Assembly (NCBI GenBank): GCA_043805855.1
Contig: JAZDHP010000007.1
Location: 1 to 7,514, forward strand
Length of the DNA stretch: 7,514 nt
Direction of reading: 5' to 3'
From: Candidatus Micrarchaeota archaeon
GTDB lineage: Archaea; Micrarchaeota; Micrarchaeia; Norongarragalinales; UBA8480
In this document: positions 2 to 7,514 of the stretch, piece after piece
How the letters are laid out: each line of letters begins with the position of its first letter
Numbering within the stretch: position 1 is the first letter of the stretch
Position numbers and translations under genes: made by a program
The notes under the pieces: generated by a model
What the model saw: the letters and a program-made list of their open reading frames with translations, nothing else
What the model was told of the DNA's origin: nothing
Databases searched by the model: none

Positions 2-637
2 GTAGAGAACGCTTTAGACACTTTAAAAAACCGCGGGGAAATTTTACAAACAACTGCACAAGATAGACTAAATCGATTACCGCAATTTAGAAAAGCAACT
101 AGAGAAGATATTGAACGGCATTTACACTTAATTCACAAAGTAATGCGAAACGGCCACATATACCTGCGTTTTAACTGGCAGAAATTTATTACTCCAAGTG
201 AAGCTTACGCAGATGGGCTTGATGGACTGGAATACGCAATTAAAACACACGACCCTACAAAGGGAAAACTAGAACCCCGCATTAAAGCATGGGTAGCACA
301 AAAAATAGGCCGCGTTGCAAGAGCAGAACAAAGGAGAATACAAAAAACACGTTCAATAGATACAATTATTACAAAAAGACAAGAACGGCGACTTTCACTT
401 TGCAGCGAGCCACGTGAACCGAGAATAACCGAAGATCAAATTGAAAGTTTAATGCAACACCCAAAAATAAAAGCAATGCATTTAGCAATACTGGCACTGC
501 ATGGCATTTACGGCCACAGTTATCCCGAAATAGCGCGGCATTTTGGTGCAAAGCCACAAGCAGTTCAAAAACACTATTCAACAACGATAAGGACATTTGC
601 TAAGATAAACAGAGAAAGAGCAGTTGGCGAACGTTAA
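2..637 (+). CDS. Sigma-70-like paralog 1 (5'-truncated by the window edge): end of wHTH-like segment, sigma region 2, region-4 HTH
   Basis: The frame is open from nt 2 (VENALDTLKNRGEILQTTAQDRLNRLPQFRKATREDIERHLHLIHKV) into the listed ATG143. This upstream part aligns with paralog 2 (VASALQKLKAKGEIQATTSQDRRTRVPQLREVTSADMERHLNLIDAV). Region-2-like GLDGLEYAIKTHDPTKGKLEPRIKAWVAQKI and region-4-like HSYPEIARHFGAKPQAVQKHY are present. Confidence 0.8.
   Translation, partial: VENALDTLKNRGEILQTTAQDRLNRLPQFRKATREDIERHLHLIHKVMRNGHIYLRFNWQKFITPSEAYADGLDGLEYAIKTHDPTKGKLEPRIKAWVAQKIGRVARAEQRRIQKTRSIDTIITKRQERRLSLCSEPREPRITEDQIESLMQHPKIKAMHLAILALHGIYGHSYPEIARHFGAKPQAVQKHYSTTIRTFAKINRERAVGER
23..43 (+). repeat. 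21-nt exact direct repeat, copy 1 (copy 2 at 2943-2963)
   Basis: TTAAAAAACCGCGGGGAAATT, encoding LKNRGEI in paralogs 1 and 4. Confidence 0.9.
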
Positions 638-639
638 AA

Positions 640-678
640 GGCAAAATAATATAAGATTAAACAAAGGCATATTGTTTA
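640..678 (+). promoter_or_regulatory. Putative BRE-TATA promoter for paralog 2 with a downstream operator-like inverted repeat
   Basis: GGCAAAAT-AATATAAG (640-655) about 28-35 nt before ATG683, then TAAACAA-N7-TTGTTTA (658-678). Confidence 0.45.
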
Positions 679-682
679 GCAC

Positions 683-1594
683 ATGACAAAGCACAACTTG
701 AAAGAGTTTTTCGCCAACGTACACTACGCGAACCTACAAGCGTTAATGCAACATGCTGAACAGCTATCTGCGCAAATTAAGGCAACTCAAAAGCCAAGAG
801 GACGAGTGAAACAATCACTAAGCGCGTTTAATTTAAAAGTGAAAGCACTTGCACCGCAATTTCTTGACGGACAGTACAATACTATGGGAATAGCCCGCGC
901 AATTATAGCAGAATCAAAAAAGAAAACTACGCCTTTTAAGAAAATGCATAGACAAGTAGCAAGTGCATTACAGAAGCTAAAAGCTAAAGGCGAAATTCAA
1001 GCGACAACTTCTCAAGATAGACGGACCCGAGTGCCGCAATTAAGAGAAGTAACAAGCGCAGATATGGAACGACATTTAAATTTAATCGACGCAGTAATGC
1101 GCGGCCGACATAAGTACCTTCGACCAGACTGGTGGCAATACTTATCAGAAGAAGATGCCTACACAACGGCACTTGATGGACTATTATATGGCCTTAAAAC
1201 TTTTGACCCAACAAAAGGAGAAAAAAGAGACGTTAGTGTAAAATTAAACGATCACTGTAGAGCATGGATTGCACAAAGGATAGACTACGCTGCTAGAAAA
1301 GAACAAAGGCAAGTAAACCGGCTAGAGTCAATGGACGATATTGAAGAAACAAGAAAAGAACACCGATTGTTGAAACCAGGCGAACAAAAGGAGCGAATAA
1401 CTAGAGCCCAACTTCAGCTTTTAATGCGACACCCGAAAATGAAGGCAACACAATTAACTATACTGGTGCTTCACGGCGTTTACGGTCACAGCCAAAAAGA
1501 AATTGCAAGACACTTCGGCGTAAAGCCACAAGCAATTCAAAATCATTACTACCGCGCGCGAGATGCACTTGTTGAAATGAACCGAGAAAAATGA
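683..1594 (+). CDS. Sigma-70-like paralog 2 (303 aa) with N-terminal basic wHTH-like domain
   Basis: EDAYTTALDGLLYGLKTFDPTKG...RAWIAQRI resembles sigma region 2.2-2.4 (DLIQEGxxGLxxAxxxFDxxKG...WWIRQAI). C-terminal LVLHGVYGHSQKEIARHFGVKPQAIQNHYYRARDAL resembles the region-4.2 HTH. Collinear with the other three paralogs. Confidence 0.8.
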   Translation: MTKHNLKEFFANVHYANLQALMQHAEQLSAQIKATQKPRGRVKQSLSAFNLKVKALAPQFLDGQYNTMGIARAIIAESKKKTTPFKKMHRQVASALQKLKAKGEIQATTSQDRRTRVPQLREVTSADMERHLNLIDAVMRGRHKYLRPDWWQYLSEEDAYTTALDGLLYGLKTFDPTKGEKRDVSVKLNDHCRAWIAQRIDYAARKEQRQVNRLESMDDIEETRKEHRLLKPGEQKERITRAQLQLLMRHPKMKATQLTILVLHGVYGHSQKEIARHFGVKPQAIQNHYYRARDALVEMNREK

Positions 1595-1647
1595 CGAATA
1601 ATACGAACACTAGATAAAAGGAAAAAACGCACACGTGAAATAGAAAA

Positions 1648-2607
1648 ATGCCACAAAATCCAATTGTAAATTACTTTAAAGGAAAATGTTACACTAGCGT
1701 AGAGGATGTTTTGGAACACACTGAAGAAATTTCTAAAAACATGAAACCAACACCAGGACCGGCTAAACTAGCGTTAACTGACTTTGAAAAAAGAGTAGCA
1801 GAAGTAGCGCCAAGATATTTAAACGGCCAGTACAACCCGAAAGAAATCGCAGTTAGAGTATTGCGCTTAAGCCAAAGAAGTAGAATAGCGAGACAGAAAA
1901 TTCCATTGCCATCTGCTATTAGAAGAATTATTCCCAAAGTGAAAAAAGCACTTAAAAAGTTAAAGAAACGCAGCAGCATTCCAATAACAACCTCGCACGA
2001 CCGACCGAAACGGTTACCAAAATTAAGAGAAGCGACCGGCGAATTAATAGAAGAGCACCGGCACTTGATTAGAAAAGTAATGGGCTGTGGCCACAAGTAC
2101 CTACCTAAAAGTTTACTATATTACTTGCAGCGCGACGATGCAAAAGCTGTAGGCATGGACGGTCTAGTACGCGCAATTGAAACTTGGGACGAAACTAAAG
2201 GTAAACTAAACCCATGGGCACGTGCATGGATTGCGCAGGCAATTGCAAGAACAGCAGTAAAAAGTAAAAAAAACCAAATGCAGTCGCTAGACGCGCCTTT
2301 AGGAGAAGATGAAGATGCAACGCTCTATGATAGAAAAGGCACACCTGCAAGTAGCCTTGAAGACCGTGAAGAAGTTGAAGATGGTTTGAGTAAATTAATG
2401 AAAAGCAGGAGGACTAAACCACATCACTTGGCGCTATACGCGTTGCACGAAATTTACCAGCGCAATTATAGCGAAATAGGCCGACATTTTAACTGCAAAG
2501 GCATAAACATAAAACGTCACCTAACAACCGCGCGGGCAATAATTGAAAAAGTAAAACAACGCGAACAAGCGGAACAAGAAAGAAGATCCCTCCGGTTAAA
2601 GGGTTGA
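1648..2607 (+). CDS. Sigma-70-like paralog 3 (319 aa) with N-terminal basic wHTH-like domain and acidic region-3.2 motif
   Basis: ELIEEHRHLIRKV (2.1), DDAKAVGMDGLVRAIETWDETKG (2.2-2.3), WARAWIAQAIART (2.3-2.4), SLDAPLGEDEDATLYD (RpoD-like 3.2) and NYSEIGRHFNCKGINIKRHLTTARAII (region 4). Confidence 0.85.
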   Translation: MPQNPIVNYFKGKCYTSVEDVLEHTEEISKNMKPTPGPAKLALTDFEKRVAEVAPRYLNGQYNPKEIAVRVLRLSQRSRIARQKIPLPSAIRRIIPKVKKALKKLKKRSSIPITTSHDRPKRLPKLREATGELIEEHRHLIRKVMGCGHKYLPKSLLYYLQRDDAKAVGMDGLVRAIETWDETKGKLNPWARAWIAQAIARTAVKSKKNQMQSLDAPLGEDEDATLYDRKGTPASSLEDREEVEDGLSKLMKSRRTKPHHLALYALHEIYQRNYSEIGRHFNCKGINIKRHLTTARAIIEKVKQREQAEQERRSLRLKG

Positions 2608-2621
2608 AAAGTTATTTTAAA
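2606..2621 (+). promoter_or_regulatory. Putative archaeal BRE-TATA promoter for paralog 4 (leaderless)
   Basis: Purine-rich GAAAAG followed by TTATTTTAAA, ending 21 nt before ATG2643; no SD motif. Confidence 0.5.
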
Positions 2622-2642
2622 GCACAACTAACTACTAACTAT

Positions 2643-3605
2643 ATGCAACCGATGCCAATTGCAAATTACTTCAAGGGAATTAGATACACTAATTTTGAAG
2701 CAGTCATGAGGCACGCTGAACAGATATCACAAGAAATAAGAGAAACCCGACAACCTAGAAAAATATCACGTAACCCGCTTACGCCGAGCCAAATTCAAGT
2801 AAAAAGACTTGCATTAACAAATTTAGACGGACAATATCGCGTTAGAAAAATCGCGGCCGCATTATTAAAAAAAGAAAAAAAACGAATTACGCCTCGCAAA
2901 ATAGATGAACGGGCAAGGCAATTAAGTCATATGTTGAAAAGATTAAAAAACCGCGGGGAAATTCCCAATACAGACGTTAGAGGTAGAAAACGGCAAAAAG
3001 CGTTACGCGCGGCAACCAACGAAGAAATTGAAAAACACCGAGAATTGGTGAAAAAAGTTATCCTCTACGGCCACACCTACTGCCATCGTAGTTTTTGGCC
3101 AAACTACTTACAACGCGAAGACGCAGAAGCAGCTGGTTTAACTGGATTAGTAAGAGCAATTGAAACGCATAAACCAAGAAAAGGAAACTTTAAAACATGG
3201 GCTAAAATGTGGATCGCACAGGCGATTACGCGAGCAGCACGGCGAGAAAAACAAAAACACGTTGCAACTTCAATGGACAAGCCAATTGGTAGAGACAAAA
3301 AAATAACGCTTCACGATGTTAAAGGTGAACCTGCGCTTAACCCAGAAGCGTTTGACCCAACTCAGATAGAAGAAGACATAAATATTTTATTAAAAAAACG
3401 AGCAAAGCCGCAAGATATAATGACTTACTTCTTGCACAAGGGGTACAAACATTCAACAAGTGAACTAAGCCGACACTTTGGAGCAACTCGAACAAGCGCT
3501 CACCGTAACTTCAAAAGAGCACAAACAATAGTGCAAAGATTAAGGCAAATAAATCAAGAAAGAGAAGAACGCGAAACCACGTTGCAAAGAACTGGAACTT
3601 ACTGA
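2643..3605 (+). CDS. Sigma-70-like paralog 4 (320 aa from ATG2643) with N-terminal basic wHTH-like domain
   Basis: ATG2643 (MQPMPIANYFKG) aligns with the paralog-3 start (MPQNPIVNYFKG) and has a TATA-like box upstream, so it is preferred over TTG2604. EDAEAAGLTGLVRAIETHKPRKGNFKTWAKMWIAQAITRA closely tracks RpoD DLIQEGNIGL..AV.KF..R.GYKFSTYATWWIRQAITR. Also SMDKPIGRD (3.2) and STSELSRHFGATRTSAHRNFKRA (region 4). Confidence 0.85.
   Translation: MQPMPIANYFKGIRYTNFEAVMRHAEQISQEIRETRQPRKISRNPLTPSQIQVKRLALTNLDGQYRVRKIAAALLKKEKKRITPRKIDERARQLSHMLKRLKNRGEIPNTDVRGRKRQKALRAATNEEIEKHRELVKKVILYGHTYCHRSFWPNYLQREDAEAAGLTGLVRAIETHKPRKGNFKTWAKMWIAQAITRAARREKQKHVATSMDKPIGRDKKITLHDVKGEPALNPEAFDPTQIEEDINILLKKRAKPQDIMTYFLHKGYKHSTSELSRHFGATRTSAHRNFKRAQTIVQRLRQINQEREERETTLQRTGTY
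2943..2963 (+). repeat. 21-nt exact direct repeat, copy 2 (copy 1 at 23-43)
   Basis: TTAAAAAACCGCGGGGAAATT, identical to 23-43. Confidence 0.9.
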
Positions 3606-3656: not shown

Positions 3657-4220
3657 TCATCGCCTGCGCTTAACAGTTGCGGTTTCTCTTGGCAGCTCTA
3701 GCCCATGTCTACTCGCGACAGTCGCATATAGCGTTTCTAAATTTCTAGTATTTCTAAGGCTAGTTTGAGTAGAAGGCGCTTCAGATACGAAATATCTGTT
3801 ATCCGGATACCCGATTGCAATTGAACGAATTGGACTTATCATAACCAGCGCATAATCTGGATCGCGCTTTAACTGCGCCATTACACTATTGCGATCACCG
3901 CTTGAAAAGCGGTCAAACCACTCTTCGCCAGTTCCACGGCAATGCGTGTGCACTTTTAAAAGTTTATAACCGGCACTAGGAGACTGCGCATGTACATGTT
4001 CAAGTAAATGGTTCGCTGCAGCGAGGCGCATTGGATCTGCTCGAACGTGCGTTGCGCTTCCACGGCCTAGTAAGTGAAAAGAATGCGCTAACCAACGAGT
4101 TTTAGCTCCAGTTCTTTGAGGTGTACAGAGAAAAACCCCGTTCGTCTCTTGCTCCAGCTGAGCTAAAGTTTTAAGTCGCTTATGCAAATGTTGTGGAATC
4201 ACTATTTCAACTTGAGGCAC
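3657..4220 (-). CDS. JAB/MPN (JAMM) domain protein, putative zinc metallo-isopeptidase
   Basis: GTG start preceded by GGGTGA. N-terminal strand-helix VEIVIPQHLHKRLKTLA followed by E25-TNG-VFL, typical of MPN domains. H91-T-H93...S106-xx-D109 matches the JAMM motif E..HxH..SxxD with a longer spacer. Confidence 0.75.
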   Translation of the reverse strand: MPQVEIVIPQHLHKRLKTLAQLEQETNGVFLCTPQRTGAKTRWLAHSFHLLGRGSATHVRADPMRLAAANHLLEHVHAQSPSAGYKLLKVHTHCRGTGEEWFDRFSSGDRNSVMAQLKRDPDYALVMISPIRSIAIGYPDNRYFVSEAPSTQTSLRNTRNLETLYATVASRHGLELPRETATVKRRR

Positions 4221-4265: not shown

Positions 4266-6710
4266 TCAAAATTCACCTAGACTCTTTTGACTTGCGCTAA
4301 CTAGCGAGGGTTCCTTTTTGCGTTTCCCAAGCTTAAGCTGTTCCGGTAAGAGTAACTCGCCGTACTCTCCATCATAGCCGGGTTTGATTTTAATCGCGTT
4401 CTCGCGGTTTAACATAATTACACGCGCCATCTCGAGGCCGACTACTTCACGCAACTCACTCTCCGGCACGTCGAACACAATTCTAAACTCGTTGACAAAC
4501 TTCGCGATTAACTTGTTGAACATTTCCTGCACTTTCACAGCGTAAAGATTAGAGCCGAGAACAGACGCGATTAACTCAGCAAGCGGAAGTACAGTACGAA
4601 AAGGAATGGCGCCCTTGCGGCGGAACCCCTCGGGCCGGTCAGCTAGTTCAATAACGCGCTTTTCAACGCCAATTGTCATTTGCTTGCCACACCTGGGGCA
4701 AATCTCTTTCAACTTCTTCGCTTCAGCTGAAGAACAAGAGAAATTACAAAGGCGGTGGCCACTCCAGTGATACTTGCCATAACTAGGCGAAGTTTCAACA
4801 GTGAACAAGAATTTACTCGCATCGTTGGAGCGAATTGCATTAAATATTTTTTCAAACGAATTACAATCGTCGCTAAACGCGTTGCACTCGCGGCCAATAC
4901 GCCACGGGTGCGGCGAGTGCGGGTCAGAACCAGAAACAATTGCAAACTGGTCAAGCGAAGACACTTGCCAATTCATAGCTGGATCGCTACTCATTCCAGT
5001 TTCAATTCCAAGCACTTTTCCAGATTTATCTTCATACGCTTCTTGAACAGAATTATAACCACTTTTATCGCCGAGTACACCAAACCAAGGCGTCCAACAA
5101 TTATGTACAGTTGCAAATTCAGTTAAATAGGAATTGTCTTCATCTACTTCTAAATTATAGACTTTTCCAGCATACTTACGCGTTTCAATTTTGCGTACCG
5201 GGAGATAAACATAAGCATCGTCTATCCAACCATGCCGTACGTTAGTCTTAAAATTGAATTTACTAAATTCTAATTCAGACAATAAATTAAATTTATCCTC
5301 AAAAAAAGTAAGCGTATTGAAAACGAAATTATCACAAGTAGCGACAATTTGCCTTTTTCCAATAAAATGCTTGCCTCTTATGGCATGCGCTAAAGCTGAA
5401 TCTACTCGAATTCCAGGAACTATTCCTAATCGCAAACAAATGATTTTAATCTGATTAGCAAAAATCCGGGAGGACGTGCTGCCTTTATCTCCTCGCCACC
5501 AACCTCGAAGTATTTGTACTTGTTTATCTACCGGTAAATTTAGCATAAAAACTGGCAAACATTTTGAGAACGCCCGCTTCACTCCAGATTTATCATAAAA
5601 TAAGCTTTGAAATAGCGTCATAATTGATTTAGAATAGAAAACTAAATCACCTGCTGATTTCCCTTGCATAGGTTTTACATTAAAGATCTGTTGCATCAAC
5701 GTTTTTACGTCATTCATATACCCCGTTTCAGTAGGTGAAAAAGTAAATGAAATAGCGTCTCTATTATTACAATAGCCCTCTGCTAGATAATATCCTGCTA
5801 AGCGGCAAAAATCAGCATCTATCTTTAAAGAAAATGACGTGTTTTCGAGTTTAATATCGAGAATTTGAACATCTTGAGAGTTATTATTAAACCGCGGGTA
5901 AAGCAAAACATCTCCGATTTCAACAGAAGATAGTGGCGCCCAAGTTGGTTTGTACTGTTGAAAATATCCAGTGGTGCAACCTTTTAGGTGAGAAGGAGTT
6001 GGTTTGCAAATAGTGCGGGGGCTATGCCCACACTGCTTTACCGTTTTAATTAAATAAATAGGATGTTCTCCAGTTGCTGCAACGCCCAAAGAAAAATACC
6101 AAGGAATCACTTTATAGATTATACCCTTATAGTCGCGGCTAATAGTTTTAGTAACTTTTCTAAGCCTGCCTAAATGAGTATAGACTGAATCGCCTTCGCT
6201 AATATCTTCTATAGCTTTAAGCTCTGATACGCTCGAAATTGGAGTTCCGGGCAAAAGACAATGCGCTGCAACGATTTCAATATCCTTCGAAACATTTTTC
6301 ACAATTTCAACAAGCTCGACGCACGAAGTTTTGCCAAACATTGGCCTACCGTCAGAAGCTAAGCTCCCGCGCTTTGAAAAAACGTCGTTTAACTGCACGG
6401 CGACGTCAAGCGAAGGCGCGTGAAGCACATGGTGAACGCGTTTCATTGAGTCAAACGTGGCAACTTCAACTGTTAGCATAAACCGCGTCGACGTTTTTAT
6501 TGAAGTTAACTCGTACAGCCCAACGCCGCTTTCAACTTCACGCAACTTAGATTTAATTTCCTTGAACCACAGCGGGTGAGTAAAATCGCCGGTGCCAATA
6601 ATTGACAACCCTTTTGCCTGCGCACCTTGCGCTAGCCCCTCGAGCGTAGATTGCGGCGAACACGCGCGAGAGTACTTAGAGTGAATGTGAAAGTCGACAA
6701 AAGAAACCAT
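4266..6710 (-). CDS. endoQ: Endonuclease Q family (PHP-domain) DNA-repair nuclease precursor with intein; mature protein 427 aa
   Basis: Family motifs DFHIHSKYSRACS, KGLSIIGTGDFTHP, VHHVL, SDGRP, AH|CWTPWFG, ETGMSSDPAMNW, SDPHS..IGRE, YGKYH..GHRLC...CPRCG...GVEKRV..LADR (Zn ribbon) and PGYDGEYG. Removing aa 151-537 leaves 427 aa, the usual EndoQ size. Confidence 0.9.
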   Translation of the reverse strand: MVSFVDFHIHSKYSRACSPQSTLEGLAQGAQAKGLSIIGTGDFTHPLWFKEIKSKLREVESGVGLYELTSIKTSTRFMLTVEVATFDSMKRVHHVLHAPSLDVAVQLNDVFSKRGSLASDGRPMFGKTSCVELVEIVKNVSKDIEIVAAHCLLPGTPISSVSELKAIEDISEGDSVYTHLGRLRKVTKTISRDYKGIIYKVIPWYFSLGVAATGEHPIYLIKTVKQCGHSPRTICKPTPSHLKGCTTGYFQQYKPTWAPLSSVEIGDVLLYPRFNNNSQDVQILDIKLENTSFSLKIDADFCRLAGYYLAEGYCNNRDAISFTFSPTETGYMNDVKTLMQQIFNVKPMQGKSAGDLVFYSKSIMTLFQSLFYDKSGVKRAFSKCLPVFMLNLPVDKQVQILRGWWRGDKGSTSSRIFANQIKIICLRLGIVPGIRVDSALAHAIRGKHFIGKRQIVATCDNFVFNTLTFFEDKFNLLSELEFSKFNFKTNVRHGWIDDAYVYLPVRKIETRKYAGKVYNLEVDEDNSYLTEFATVHNCWTPWFGVLGDKSGYNSVQEAYEDKSGKVLGIETGMSSDPAMNWQVSSLDQFAIVSGSDPHSPHPWRIGRECNAFSDDCNSFEKIFNAIRSNDASKFLFTVETSPSYGKYHWSGHRLCNFSCSSAEAKKLKEICPRCGKQMTIGVEKRVIELADRPEGFRRKGAIPFRTVLPLAELIASVLGSNLYAVKVQEMFNKLIAKFVNEFRIVFDVPESELREVVGLEMARVIMLNRENAIKIKPGYDGEYGELLLPEQLKLGKRKKEPSLVSASQKSLGEF
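5100..6260 (-). mobile_element. Intein (387 aa, aa 151-537) with LAGLIDADG homing-endonuclease domain
   Basis: Block A C1-LLPGT, block B ATGEHPIY (TxxH), LAGLIDADG motifs LAGYYLAEG and LRGWWRGD, block H-like IKIICLRLGI, block F VYNLEV, block G TVHN followed by +1 Cys. Splicing restores AAH-CWTPWFG. Visibly more AT-rich than the exteins. Confidence 0.95.
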
Positions 6711-6715
6711 TGAAA

Positions 6716-6740
6716 TTTAACGAAGTTAAAAGTTTTAAAG
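6716..6740 (-). promoter_or_regulatory. Putative TATA box for endoQ overlapping the marC stop, followed by a 6-bp inverted repeat
   Basis: Minus-strand CTTTAAAA (6740-6733) ends 22 nt before ATG6710. TTTAAC-N3-GTTAAA (6716-6730) lies between the box and the start codon. Confidence 0.4.
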
Positions 6741-7334
6741 CGCGGCTTTTAACCCAGCTAATGCAAATTGAACTGCAACGGCGATTAACAGCAAACCCAT
6801 TATTCGCGAGAGCAACTCAGTTCCAGTTTCACCAATTACATTATTGATAATGTCAGAATAGCGGAGTATAGCCCAAGTTGTCACAAGCGCAAGCAACGCG
6901 GCAGCAGCAGTTATCCAAATTCCATACTGCCCGGACAAAATAATTGCAGTTGTAATTACTCCGGGCCCGCTTAACACTGGAGTGCCAATAATAAGCGCAG
7001 CTGGCGGCACTTTCTTGATTTTTTCCTTTTCTCTTGGAAACGATAAACCAAGCACTAGCTCAAGCCCCATTACCCCGAGGACAATTCCACCTGCAACTTG
7101 CATTGAACCAAAAGTAATCCCAAGCGCAGATAAAATAGATTGACCAAAAAACAAAAACACAAACAACAGCCCGCCGGCAATTGCAACGGCCTCAAGTGCA
7201 ATTAAATGTTTCTTCTTAACATTTTCCTTGCGCGTCAACGACAAAAATACAGGTAAACTTACAAACGGGTCCATAATGGCAAGTAGCGGAATAAACACGC
7301 GGATGAAAACTTCAACTAAACTCGCCTCGACCAT
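6735..7334 (-). CDS. marC: MarC family integral membrane protein (199 aa)
   Basis: About six hydrophobic segments with MarC signatures: LLAIMDPFVSLPVFLSLT, GQSILSALGIT..SMQVAGGIVL, P.LSGPG.ITTAI and SRIMGLLLIAVAVQF. Confidence 0.93.
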   Translation of the reverse strand: MVEASLVEVFIRVFIPLLAIMDPFVSLPVFLSLTRKENVKKKHLIALEAVAIAGGLLFVFLFFGQSILSALGITFGSMQVAGGIVLGVMGLELVLGLSFPREKEKIKKVPPAALIIGTPVLSGPGVITTAIILSGQYGIWITAAAALLALVTTWAILRYSDIINNVIGETGTELLSRIMGLLLIAVAVQFALAGLKAAL

Positions 7335-7374
7335 ACTAAGTAAAAAACCCTCGAAGTATAAAAAAGTACGACCA
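7335..7374. promoter_or_regulatory. Compact divergent promoter region between marC and the small membrane ORF
   Basis: 40-nt gap. The minus strand has TTTTTTATA (7365-7357) about 22-30 nt before the marC ATG. No SD on either strand. Confidence 0.5.
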
Positions 7375-7514
7375 ATGGCAAAAACTAACTACGAAAAAGA
7401 AAAACTAGACAATCTAGAAAAAGAACTGCACAACGTCAAGCAAATCAACTACTTGAACTTAACGATTTTGCTAATTTTACTCGCATTTGTAATTGGAATA
7501 GTTTTAAAACAACT
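7375..7514 (+). CDS. Small putative membrane protein (3'-truncated): charged helical N-terminus followed by one TM segment
   Basis: Not in the ORF track. ATG7375 opens MAKTNYEKEKLDNLEKELHNVKQINYLNLTILLILLAFVIGIVLKQ with no stop before the window end. It is divergent from marC across a 40-nt gap. Confidence 0.6.
   Translation, partial: MAKTNYEKEKLDNLEKELHNVKQINYLNLTILLILLAFVIGIVLKQ

Follow-up and report, generated by a model that had tools for sequence, protein, structure and literature searches.

Four genes for sigma-70 homologues stand in tandem on a short contig of Candidatus Micrarchaeota, an archaeon of the DPANN group. On balance, their products are probably sigma-derived, gene-specific DNA-binding regulators rather than canonical sigma subunits. 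The window examined here is the entire contig JAZDHP010000007.1 (C7; 7514 bp) and belongs to the bin G000, which comprises 67 contigs and 1,031,631 bp with a completeness of 92.14%. In what follows, C with a number denotes a contig of G000, G001, G002 and G003 are related genomes, and L074 is a related metagenome contig. An earlier interpretation of the same DNA, made from its letters and referred to below as the sequence-only reading, had described the array, and its claims are taken up where our results bear on them.

Sigma-70 homology of the array and its archaeal host

The sigma-70 homology of the four proteins, which covers domain 2 and the helix-turn-helix (HTH) of region 4, was confirmed by family models, by a profile match to sequences of the Protein Data Bank (PDB) and by the predicted fold, as the sequence-only reading had proposed. 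The Pfam model Sigma70_r2 (PF04542) recognised copy 4 with 35.3 bits, over its cut-off of 24, and gave 22.0 bits, below it, with copy 3; Sigma70_r4_2 (PF08281) recognised copy 2 with 40.6 bits, over its cut-off of 25.7, and gave 22.8 bits, below it, with copy 1. A profile made from the G000 paralogs matched 75 distinct PDB sequences at E <= 0.01, the best of them a cyanobacterial SigA (8h3v_G, E 4.5e-16), which aligned in two stretches, region 2 and then regions 3.2-4. The AlphaFold2 model of copy 4, computed from 46 family members, has a predicted local distance difference test (pLDDT) score of 92.3. Foldseek returned 26 matches to this model at E <= 0.001, sigma factors throughout among the matches listed, and in a structural search the model reached Z >= 8 with 159 of 992 chains, in alignments that extend to residue 308. 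Modelled residues 125-202 superpose on residues 376-446 of E. coli sigma-70 (1sig) with Z 10.9, a root-mean-square deviation of 1.7 A over 70 residues and 31% identity, and the model also matches domain 2 of T. aquaticus sigma-A with -10 single-stranded DNA (3ugo; Z 9.8).

The closest matches are group 1/3-like and not of the extracytoplasmic function (ECF) type, which agrees with the group-1/3-like origin suggested earlier. With the NCBIfam model TIGR02937 (sigma70-ECF), copies 4, 3, 2 and 1 scored 41.4, 39.1, 31.8 and 20.6 bits, respectively. Since all four values lie below the cut-off of 42.9 bits, the curated rule of this model would not name the proteins sigma. Members of the family in other bins (P0009 and P0015) carry the NCBI names 'sigma factor' or 'sigma-70 family RNA polymerase sigma factor [Candidatus Micrarchaeota archaeon]'.

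The four genes are collinear, and the gaps between their open reading frames (ORFs) measure 45, 53 and 35 nt, the range of 35-53 nt given by the sequence-only reading; the motif GLVRAIET...KGNFKTWAKMWIAQAITRA cited there is located in copy 4. Copy 1 is cut by the start of the window. The 3' end of C49 is identical to the 5' end of C7 over exactly 141 nt, and the merged ORF of copy 1 is 303 aa long and stop-free. Further upstream on C49, none of the genes is sigma-like: they encode a NUDIX protein, a cobalamin adenosyltransferase, two proteins of no known family and a small Zn-ribbon protein. Because the overlap completes copy 1 and no sigma-like gene lies upstream, the array consists of exactly four copies. 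Thus the four collinear paralogs described earlier stand, while the open-ended count of 'at least four' is replaced by a fixed one. Identity is 53% between copies 1 and 2, 40% between copies 3 and 4 and 33-36% in the remaining pairs; the tree groups copies 3 and 4 as sisters with support of 99/98. An AT-rich box precedes the ATG of every copy by 25-45 nt, so that each might have a separate archaeal promoter. GGTGA, put forward earlier as a Shine-Dalgarno motif, is absent before all sigma-like start codons. Family scans revealed no recognisable anti-sigma gene in the window or near the paralogs, in agreement with what had been said of the array. The assembly is broken within or next to sigma-like paralogs at the 3' end of C49, at both ends of C7 and at the 5' start of C29, and the exact 141-nt overlaps resemble assembler k-mer joins.

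The host of the array is an archaeon of the DPANN group, as the sequence-only reading had surmised. G000 contains a TBP (97.8 bits), an archaeal RpoA1 above the cut-off of its model, one TFB, one TFE-alpha and an archaeal small-subunit (16S) rRNA (1257.9 bits). The only matches of the bacterial rpoB model TIGR02013 in G000 were to the split RpoB of archaeal type encoded on C51, and they stayed under the cut-off. G000 has A' and A'' fused into a single largest RNA polymerase subunit. Open frames for this subunit in the 29 related genomes that gave a match are 1128-1185 aa long (with three of about 1665-1671 aa), and the A'+A'' fusion therefore seems to be order-wide.

A contig of only 7.5 kb, with assembly breaks within the paralogs, might be mis-binned bacterial or phage DNA or a chimera, a question that had been raised with the first description of the array. 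Mis-binning of the family is excluded by the context of the paralogs, the contig links and the composition, and we regard the chance that the window is foreign or chimeric as negligible. On the 58-kb contig C29, a paralog lies between a PIN gene and the genes for TBP, Rpb4/RpoF, DUF655 and KsgA; on the 34-kb contig C31, paralogs lie among those for MetRS, the thermosome, deoxyhypusine synthase and IMPDH. Each end of C7 shares exactly 141 nt with an end of another contig, C49 or C19; there are no other such links in the bin, and the scaffold order C49(+)-C7(+)-C19(-), of about 32.7 kb, is possible; the end of C19 that joins the window encodes aIF5A and an archaeal DUF2226 protein. The tetranucleotide profile of the array is native: it correlates with the rest of G000 at 0.932, compared to 0.938 +/- 0.027 for 400 random control segments of 3.6 kb, 31% of which were lower. 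The EndoQ neighbour of the array is syntenic in three related archaeal genomes, and the contamination estimate for the bin is 1.23%.

A three-module architecture and diverged read-out residues

The members of the family have a common layout, with an N-terminal domain of ~120 residues, sigma regions 2.1-2.4, a short acidic linker and region 4. The linker retains the motif 'SLDxPxGxD..TL', which opens region 3.2 in group-1 sigmas. Sigma domain 3 is absent: when the family was aligned with six group-1-like sigmas retrieved by the search, every family row lacked the ~75 residues that separate region 2.4 from the 'SLD' motif in the latter. Sigma region 2 contains a family-specific insert with a near-invariant Trp (W152 in 43 of 46 members).

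The N-terminal domain, modelled alone with a pLDDT of 79.3, had no Foldseek match at E <= 0.001 and no Pfam hit, and a search of the protein Atlas yielded nothing usable (best feature score 0.82, TM < 0.4). In a structural search against 48,161 chains, 67 reached Z >= 5 and none Z >= 8; most of the 50 matches listed were winged-helix domains. Modelled residues 40-118 aligned with the winged helices of PqqD, Lrp/AsnC, MarR, Fur, ArsR, MCM and Orc at Z 5.1-6.9. These comparisons of models are suggestive of a winged-helix-like domain, and not proof of one. The N-terminal domain is duplicated in the 378-aa paralog on C31, and relatives of 370-490 aa contain two to four matched stretches, so that the domain behaves as a repeatable module.

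The residues with which sigma factors read the promoter were compared in 46 aligned family members, using E. coli numbering. Y430, W433, W434, Q437 and T440 are taken here to be the residues of -10 melting and recognition (regions 2.3/2.4), and Q406, E407 and N409 those of core binding in region 2.2. At the position of Y430 the family has H in 20 and Y in 16 of the 46 members. W433 is replaced in all of them, window copies included (W in 0/46), W434 is kept in 7/46 and T440 in 3/46. Q437 is also kept in 3/46, and these are the three window copies present in that alignment. All four window copies retain the equivalents of W434 and Q437, and not that of W433. The recognition-helix positions of region 4.2 vary between paralogs. 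Thus the sigma fold is kept and the canonical read-out residues are mostly lost, with the four copies of the window being the least diverged in this respect. The proteins are also strongly basic, with a median isoelectric point (pI) of 10.39 in the family (n=62) versus 7.86 in 77 other sigma hits.

We propose that a bacterial-type sigma-70 factor with a region-3.2-like motif was the ancestor of a Micrarchaeota-restricted accessory family, which would have dropped sigma domain 3 and acquired the N-terminal winged-helix-like domain. Each protein would then combine as many as three modules for nucleic-acid binding (winged helix, sigma 2 and the sigma 4 HTH) in a strongly basic chain. The paralogs may be DNA-binding regulators of the transcription of particular genes, added to the usual archaeal TBP/TFB/TFE machinery, and the varied recognition-helix residues might give each paralog its own targets. 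We favour this explanation because three modules of nucleic-acid-binding type, a basic charge and diversified recognition helices fit it; the proteins would bind DNA, have a regulatory role and work independently of polymerase docking. Several points weigh against it. The case for DNA binding consists of predicted folds and of charge; the winged-helix assignment depends on Z values below 8, where a merely common arrangement can score; and the high pI may in part mirror the general composition of the proteome. In addition, with their equivalents of W434 and Q437 the window copies resemble sigma factors more closely than the other members do, which leaves room for single-strand recognition of the -10 type.

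The paralogs might instead serve the archaeal RNA polymerase as genuine specificity subunits of sigma type, with sigma 2 seated on the RpoA clamp coiled-coil (the TFE/Spt5 site) and alternative promoters served alongside TBP/TFB. Such a role would suit the well-preserved sigma-2 fold seen in the superposition on E. coli sigma-70 and the retention of the W434 and Q437 equivalents in the window copies. It would also suit the fact that the best-conserved stretch of the whole family, 'GL.RAIE..DP.KG', lies in region 2.2, although the Q406/E407/N409-equivalent positions are variable in that same region. About ten paralogs is the typical size of an alternative sigma set, and with a single TFB and a single half-size TBP, G000 has no other source of promoter-class diversity. 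Against this, the half-size TBP is order-wide and does not track the family, and the whole family is missing in a genome of the same genus (see below). Polymerase subunits of this kind are therefore unlikely in our estimation. Slightly more doubtful is the full version of the idea, in which a captured bacterial sigma was rewired to the archaeal machine and ~ten paralogs dock on the RpoA clamp as alternative specificity factors in a lineage with a single-lobe TBP and a single TFB.

It had further been suggested that the proteins could target the RNA polymerase of a bacterial partner, as effectors or decoys. Apart from sigma homology itself, nothing speaks for this. By inspection, the N-termini have no evident secretion signal, the core-binding positions of region 2.2 are not conserved, and three modules of DNA-binding type would be superfluous in a secreted decoy. 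Moreover, the hosts of cultivated Micrarchaeota are archaeal, according to the available text of PMC8975820. We consider this suggestion very improbable.

An accessory family and its variable slot

Amplification of the sigma gene, as inferred earlier from the array, extends to the whole genome. G000 contains nine complete genes and one fragment of the family: four on C7 (copy 1 across C49/C7), two on C31, one on C29 together with an N-terminal fragment at the start of that contig, and one each on C15 and C65. The complete genes typically encode 299-333 aa, and 378 aa in one case on C31. Genes of ~250 aa directly upstream of the paralogs on C29, C15 and C65 were considered as a candidate conserved partner and rejected, as they are mutually non-homologous.

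A profile search of 1.84 billion representatives returned 58 proteins at E <= 1e-30 and 20,563 at 1e-3. Matches with the full architecture number roughly 73 and extend down to about 1e-18, and generic sigmas appear from about 1e-14. A single-sequence homologue search with copy 4 returned copy 4 alone, and a single-protein search of genome contigs with P0026 or P0011 gave no match. Two trees were built, a quick one with 62 family rows (11 fragment or off-family rows of P0001-P0073 having been dropped) and 20 outgroups, and a careful one with 32 chosen family rows and 10 chosen outgroup rows. The nearest non-family sigmas fall all on one side of a branch with support 97/98; in the quick tree a short 'outgroup' protein, P0083, is nested within the family. 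Terminal branches are long (0.5-1.1 changes per site), and the G000 paralogs interleave with proteins of other bins, indicating that most of the duplications are old.

Among 41 related genomes, 12 had some match at E <= 1e-5, and full-length members were found only in G000 (12 matches) and in G001 (9), which belongs to the same genus. No member was found in G002, a genome of the same genus that is 91% complete and whose RpoA N-terminus is 92% identical, or in G003 (62% complete). Since a genome of the same genus lacks the whole family, the family cannot belong to the core initiation system. In a 401-genome sample of the phylum, in which at most five candidates were scored per genome, four genomes had matches at E <= 1e-12 and only G000 had full-length ones; the other three had regions 2-4 only, with two proteins in which Sigma70_r2 exceeds the Pfam cut-off. 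The single-repeat 'half' TBP of G000 was considered as a possible correlate of the sigma-like family. This was rejected, as a short TBP occurs in 35 of the 41 related genomes (one PF00352 match each, in frames of 93-182 aa), most of which lack the family.

The array occupies a slot bordered on the left by the gene for the small Zn-ribbon membrane protein and on the right by the EndoQ gene. This slot contains nothing (14 nt) in G002, one JAMM-like gene, 46% identical to that of the window, in G001, one sigma-like gene (P0014) in L074, and in G000 a JAMM-like gene, the four sigma-like genes and another JAMM-like gene. As its content differs among four relatives, the array is an accessory, locally amplified insert. 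It may have grown by local duplication in this variable chromosomal slot, with 1-2 and 3-4 as the pairs. The features of the window and of the loci connected with it are listed in Table 1.

Table 1. Features of the window (positions without prefix) and of associated loci on other contigs.
Feature	Position	Strand	Remarks
Copy 1, C-terminal 211 aa (sigma region 2, linker, region 4)	2..637	+	ORF, 5' cut
Copy 1, N-terminal 138 aa	C49:3660-4073		From the C49/C7 overlap
Spacer before copy 2, AT-rich TATA-like stretch AATAATATAAG	638..682	+	Stretch about 30-40 nt before the ATG; putative promoter
Copy 2, 303 aa	683..1594	+	N-terminal winged-helix-like domain, sigma domain 2, region-3.2-like linker, region-4 HTH
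Similar AT-rich spacers	1595-1647 and 2608-2642
Copy 3, 319 aa	1648..2607	+	Architecture as copy 2
Copy 4, 320 aa from ATG at 2643	2643..3605	+	Public gene call, P0001; mechanical ORF starts at TTG, 2604
Flanking gene, 187 aa	3657..4220	-	HxH...S..D motif, JAMM/MPN-like by inspection
EndoQ-like PHP-domain protein, 814 aa, split by intein	4266..6710	-	TIGR00375, 215 bits in two stretches; intein and Hint hits
MarC/NAAT-family membrane protein	6735..7334	-	PF01914, 147.8 bits
Open frame, 95 aa, Lys-rich then hydrophobic	7228-7512	+	Runs off 3' end; overlaps the 5' end of the opposite-strand MarC gene; no Pfam hit
Left-border Zn-ribbon gene	C49:2245-2598; L076:939-1298; L077:437-793; L074:558-914	+ (C49)	Weak TFIIB-ribbon Pfam hit, 19.7 bits
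JAMM-like gene on the other side of the array	C49:2601-3599	-	Paralog of 3657..4220
Third JAMM-like copy	C42:16102-16635	+
Family paralog, 378 aa	C31:24375-25523 (locus L023:12373-13509)	- (C31)	N-terminal domain duplicated
Single-repeat TBP	C29:4734-5024	-
Largest RNA polymerase subunit, A'+A'', 1132 aa	C51:4956-7373 (locus L013:520-3918)	- (L013)

The left-border protein (117-119 aa) combines a CxxC...CxxC zinc ribbon at its N-terminus with a membrane helix at its C-terminus; it is found in all four genomes and is 75% identical between G000 and G002. In G000, the JAMM-like genes on either side of the array share 43% identity over 176 aa (E 2e-54). Their family motif 'KVHTHCRGTG..WFD.FSS.D' reads like a JAMM/MPN metalloprotease signature, and they had no Pfam, PHROG, PADLOC or PDB sequence hit. 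The intein in EndoQ, recognised by the sequence-only reading, was recovered here: it comprises ~380 residues (about 155-536 of the protein) with a LAGLIDADG domain and is present in G000 only. The EndoQ homologues in G001, G002 and L074 (429-480 aa; 66-74% identical in L074) are intein-free, suggesting that the intein was acquired recently or strain-specifically.

A slot with four contents in four genomes, and presence that varies within one genus, could also be the mark of a genetic-conflict or mobile-element family, whose members would be either regulators that move between the host and DPANN viruses or integrated elements, or host factors directed against viral transcription. This would account for the fast divergence seen in the long terminal branches, the copy-number variation and the variable slot, and the array is flanked by duplicated JAMM-like genes. 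Two rpoS-annotated genes are described in DPANN viruses in the available text of PMC12647753, and the best PHROG match of the family is a phage sigma family (phrog_351, E 4.7e-14), but copy 4, used as a query, found no relative in viral contigs. The composition of the array is native, the other paralogs stand singly between housekeeping genes, and no defence-system family matched except MzaA at 14 bits. No integrase, repeats or tRNA were seen at the slot borders, though no search was aimed at them. Taken together, we assign a low probability to a mobile-element or conflict role of the family.

Relation to known sigma factors and biological meaning

The first report of sigma factors in DPANN is said to be that of Rinke et al. 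in Nature in 2013. Our literature search, which had most subscription journals outside its reach, found no functional study of archaeal sigma homologues. A DPANN sigma-70 family, fam00359, has been described (Castelle et al., 2021, Front Microbiol, PMC8204110), in the available text of which mis-binning is ruled out, no anti-sigmas are reported and the mechanism is left open. According to Table S3 of that work, the family has a median length of 280 aa and occurs in 15% of the Micrarchaeota (n = 13), 39% of the Woesearchaeota (n = 196) and 38% of the Pacearchaeota (n = 90). The earlier statement that no characterised system of this kind was known thus remains correct in that such proteins are uncharacterised, and no functional study was found in the literature; their existence was already in print (PMC8204110).

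The family of the window answers to the description of fam00359, being sigma-70-annotated, 299-333 aa long and surrounded by archaeal neighbours; the likeness is one of description, and assignment to that cluster is not implied. The fam00359 proteins are likewise sigma-70 homologues in DPANN genomes with a full TBP/TFB/TFE set, no anti-sigma and mis-binning excluded. An N-terminal winged-helix-like domain, a ~ten-fold expansion, tandem arrays and presence or absence within a genus are not described in the available text on fam00359. As far as the literature search shows, the new elements are therefore the family of winged-helix-like, sigma2 and sigma4 modules, its ~ten-fold expansion with a four-gene array, and the array as an optional insert. 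The whole is a well-documented case of a published, uncharacterised phenomenon.

With bacterial sigmas of groups 1-3 (SigA/RpoD, RpoS, SigH and the sporulation sigmas) the family of the window shares the sigma-2 fold and sequence, the region 4.2 HTH and, ahead of region 4, the 'SLDxPxG' motif. It differs from them in having neither domain 3 nor region 1.1, an extra N-terminal domain, a W433-equivalent that is never W and a pI of about 10, and its host is without a bacterial core polymerase. With ECF (group 4) sigmas it has in common the two-domain sigma2-sigma4 core and a similar size, and its best NCBIfam model is the sigma70-ECF model. Unlike these, it stays under the cut-off of TIGR02937, its PDB profile favours group 1, no anti-sigma partner was found, and it has an N-terminal extension of ~120 residues. 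A search of sequencing runs returned one DNA run, with 0.06 of the sampled words, and no RNA run, a result that has no bearing on expression or habitat.

The question of what sigma-like proteins do in cells that lack the bacterial enzyme for transcription dates from the DPANN reports. G000 is favourable for its study, with about ten intact, diverged copies of a defined three-module architecture, and the close relative that lacks the family is a natural comparison. One clean locus exists in four states in four relatives: empty, with another gene, with one copy and with four copies. If the paralogs are ordinary DNA-binding regulators, they would show the recycling of a sigma factor into a transcription factor. 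If they contact the archaeal polymerase, the line that textbooks draw between initiation in bacteria and in archaea would become less sharp, and paralogs docked on RpoA would amount to a hybrid bacterial/archaeal initiation system.

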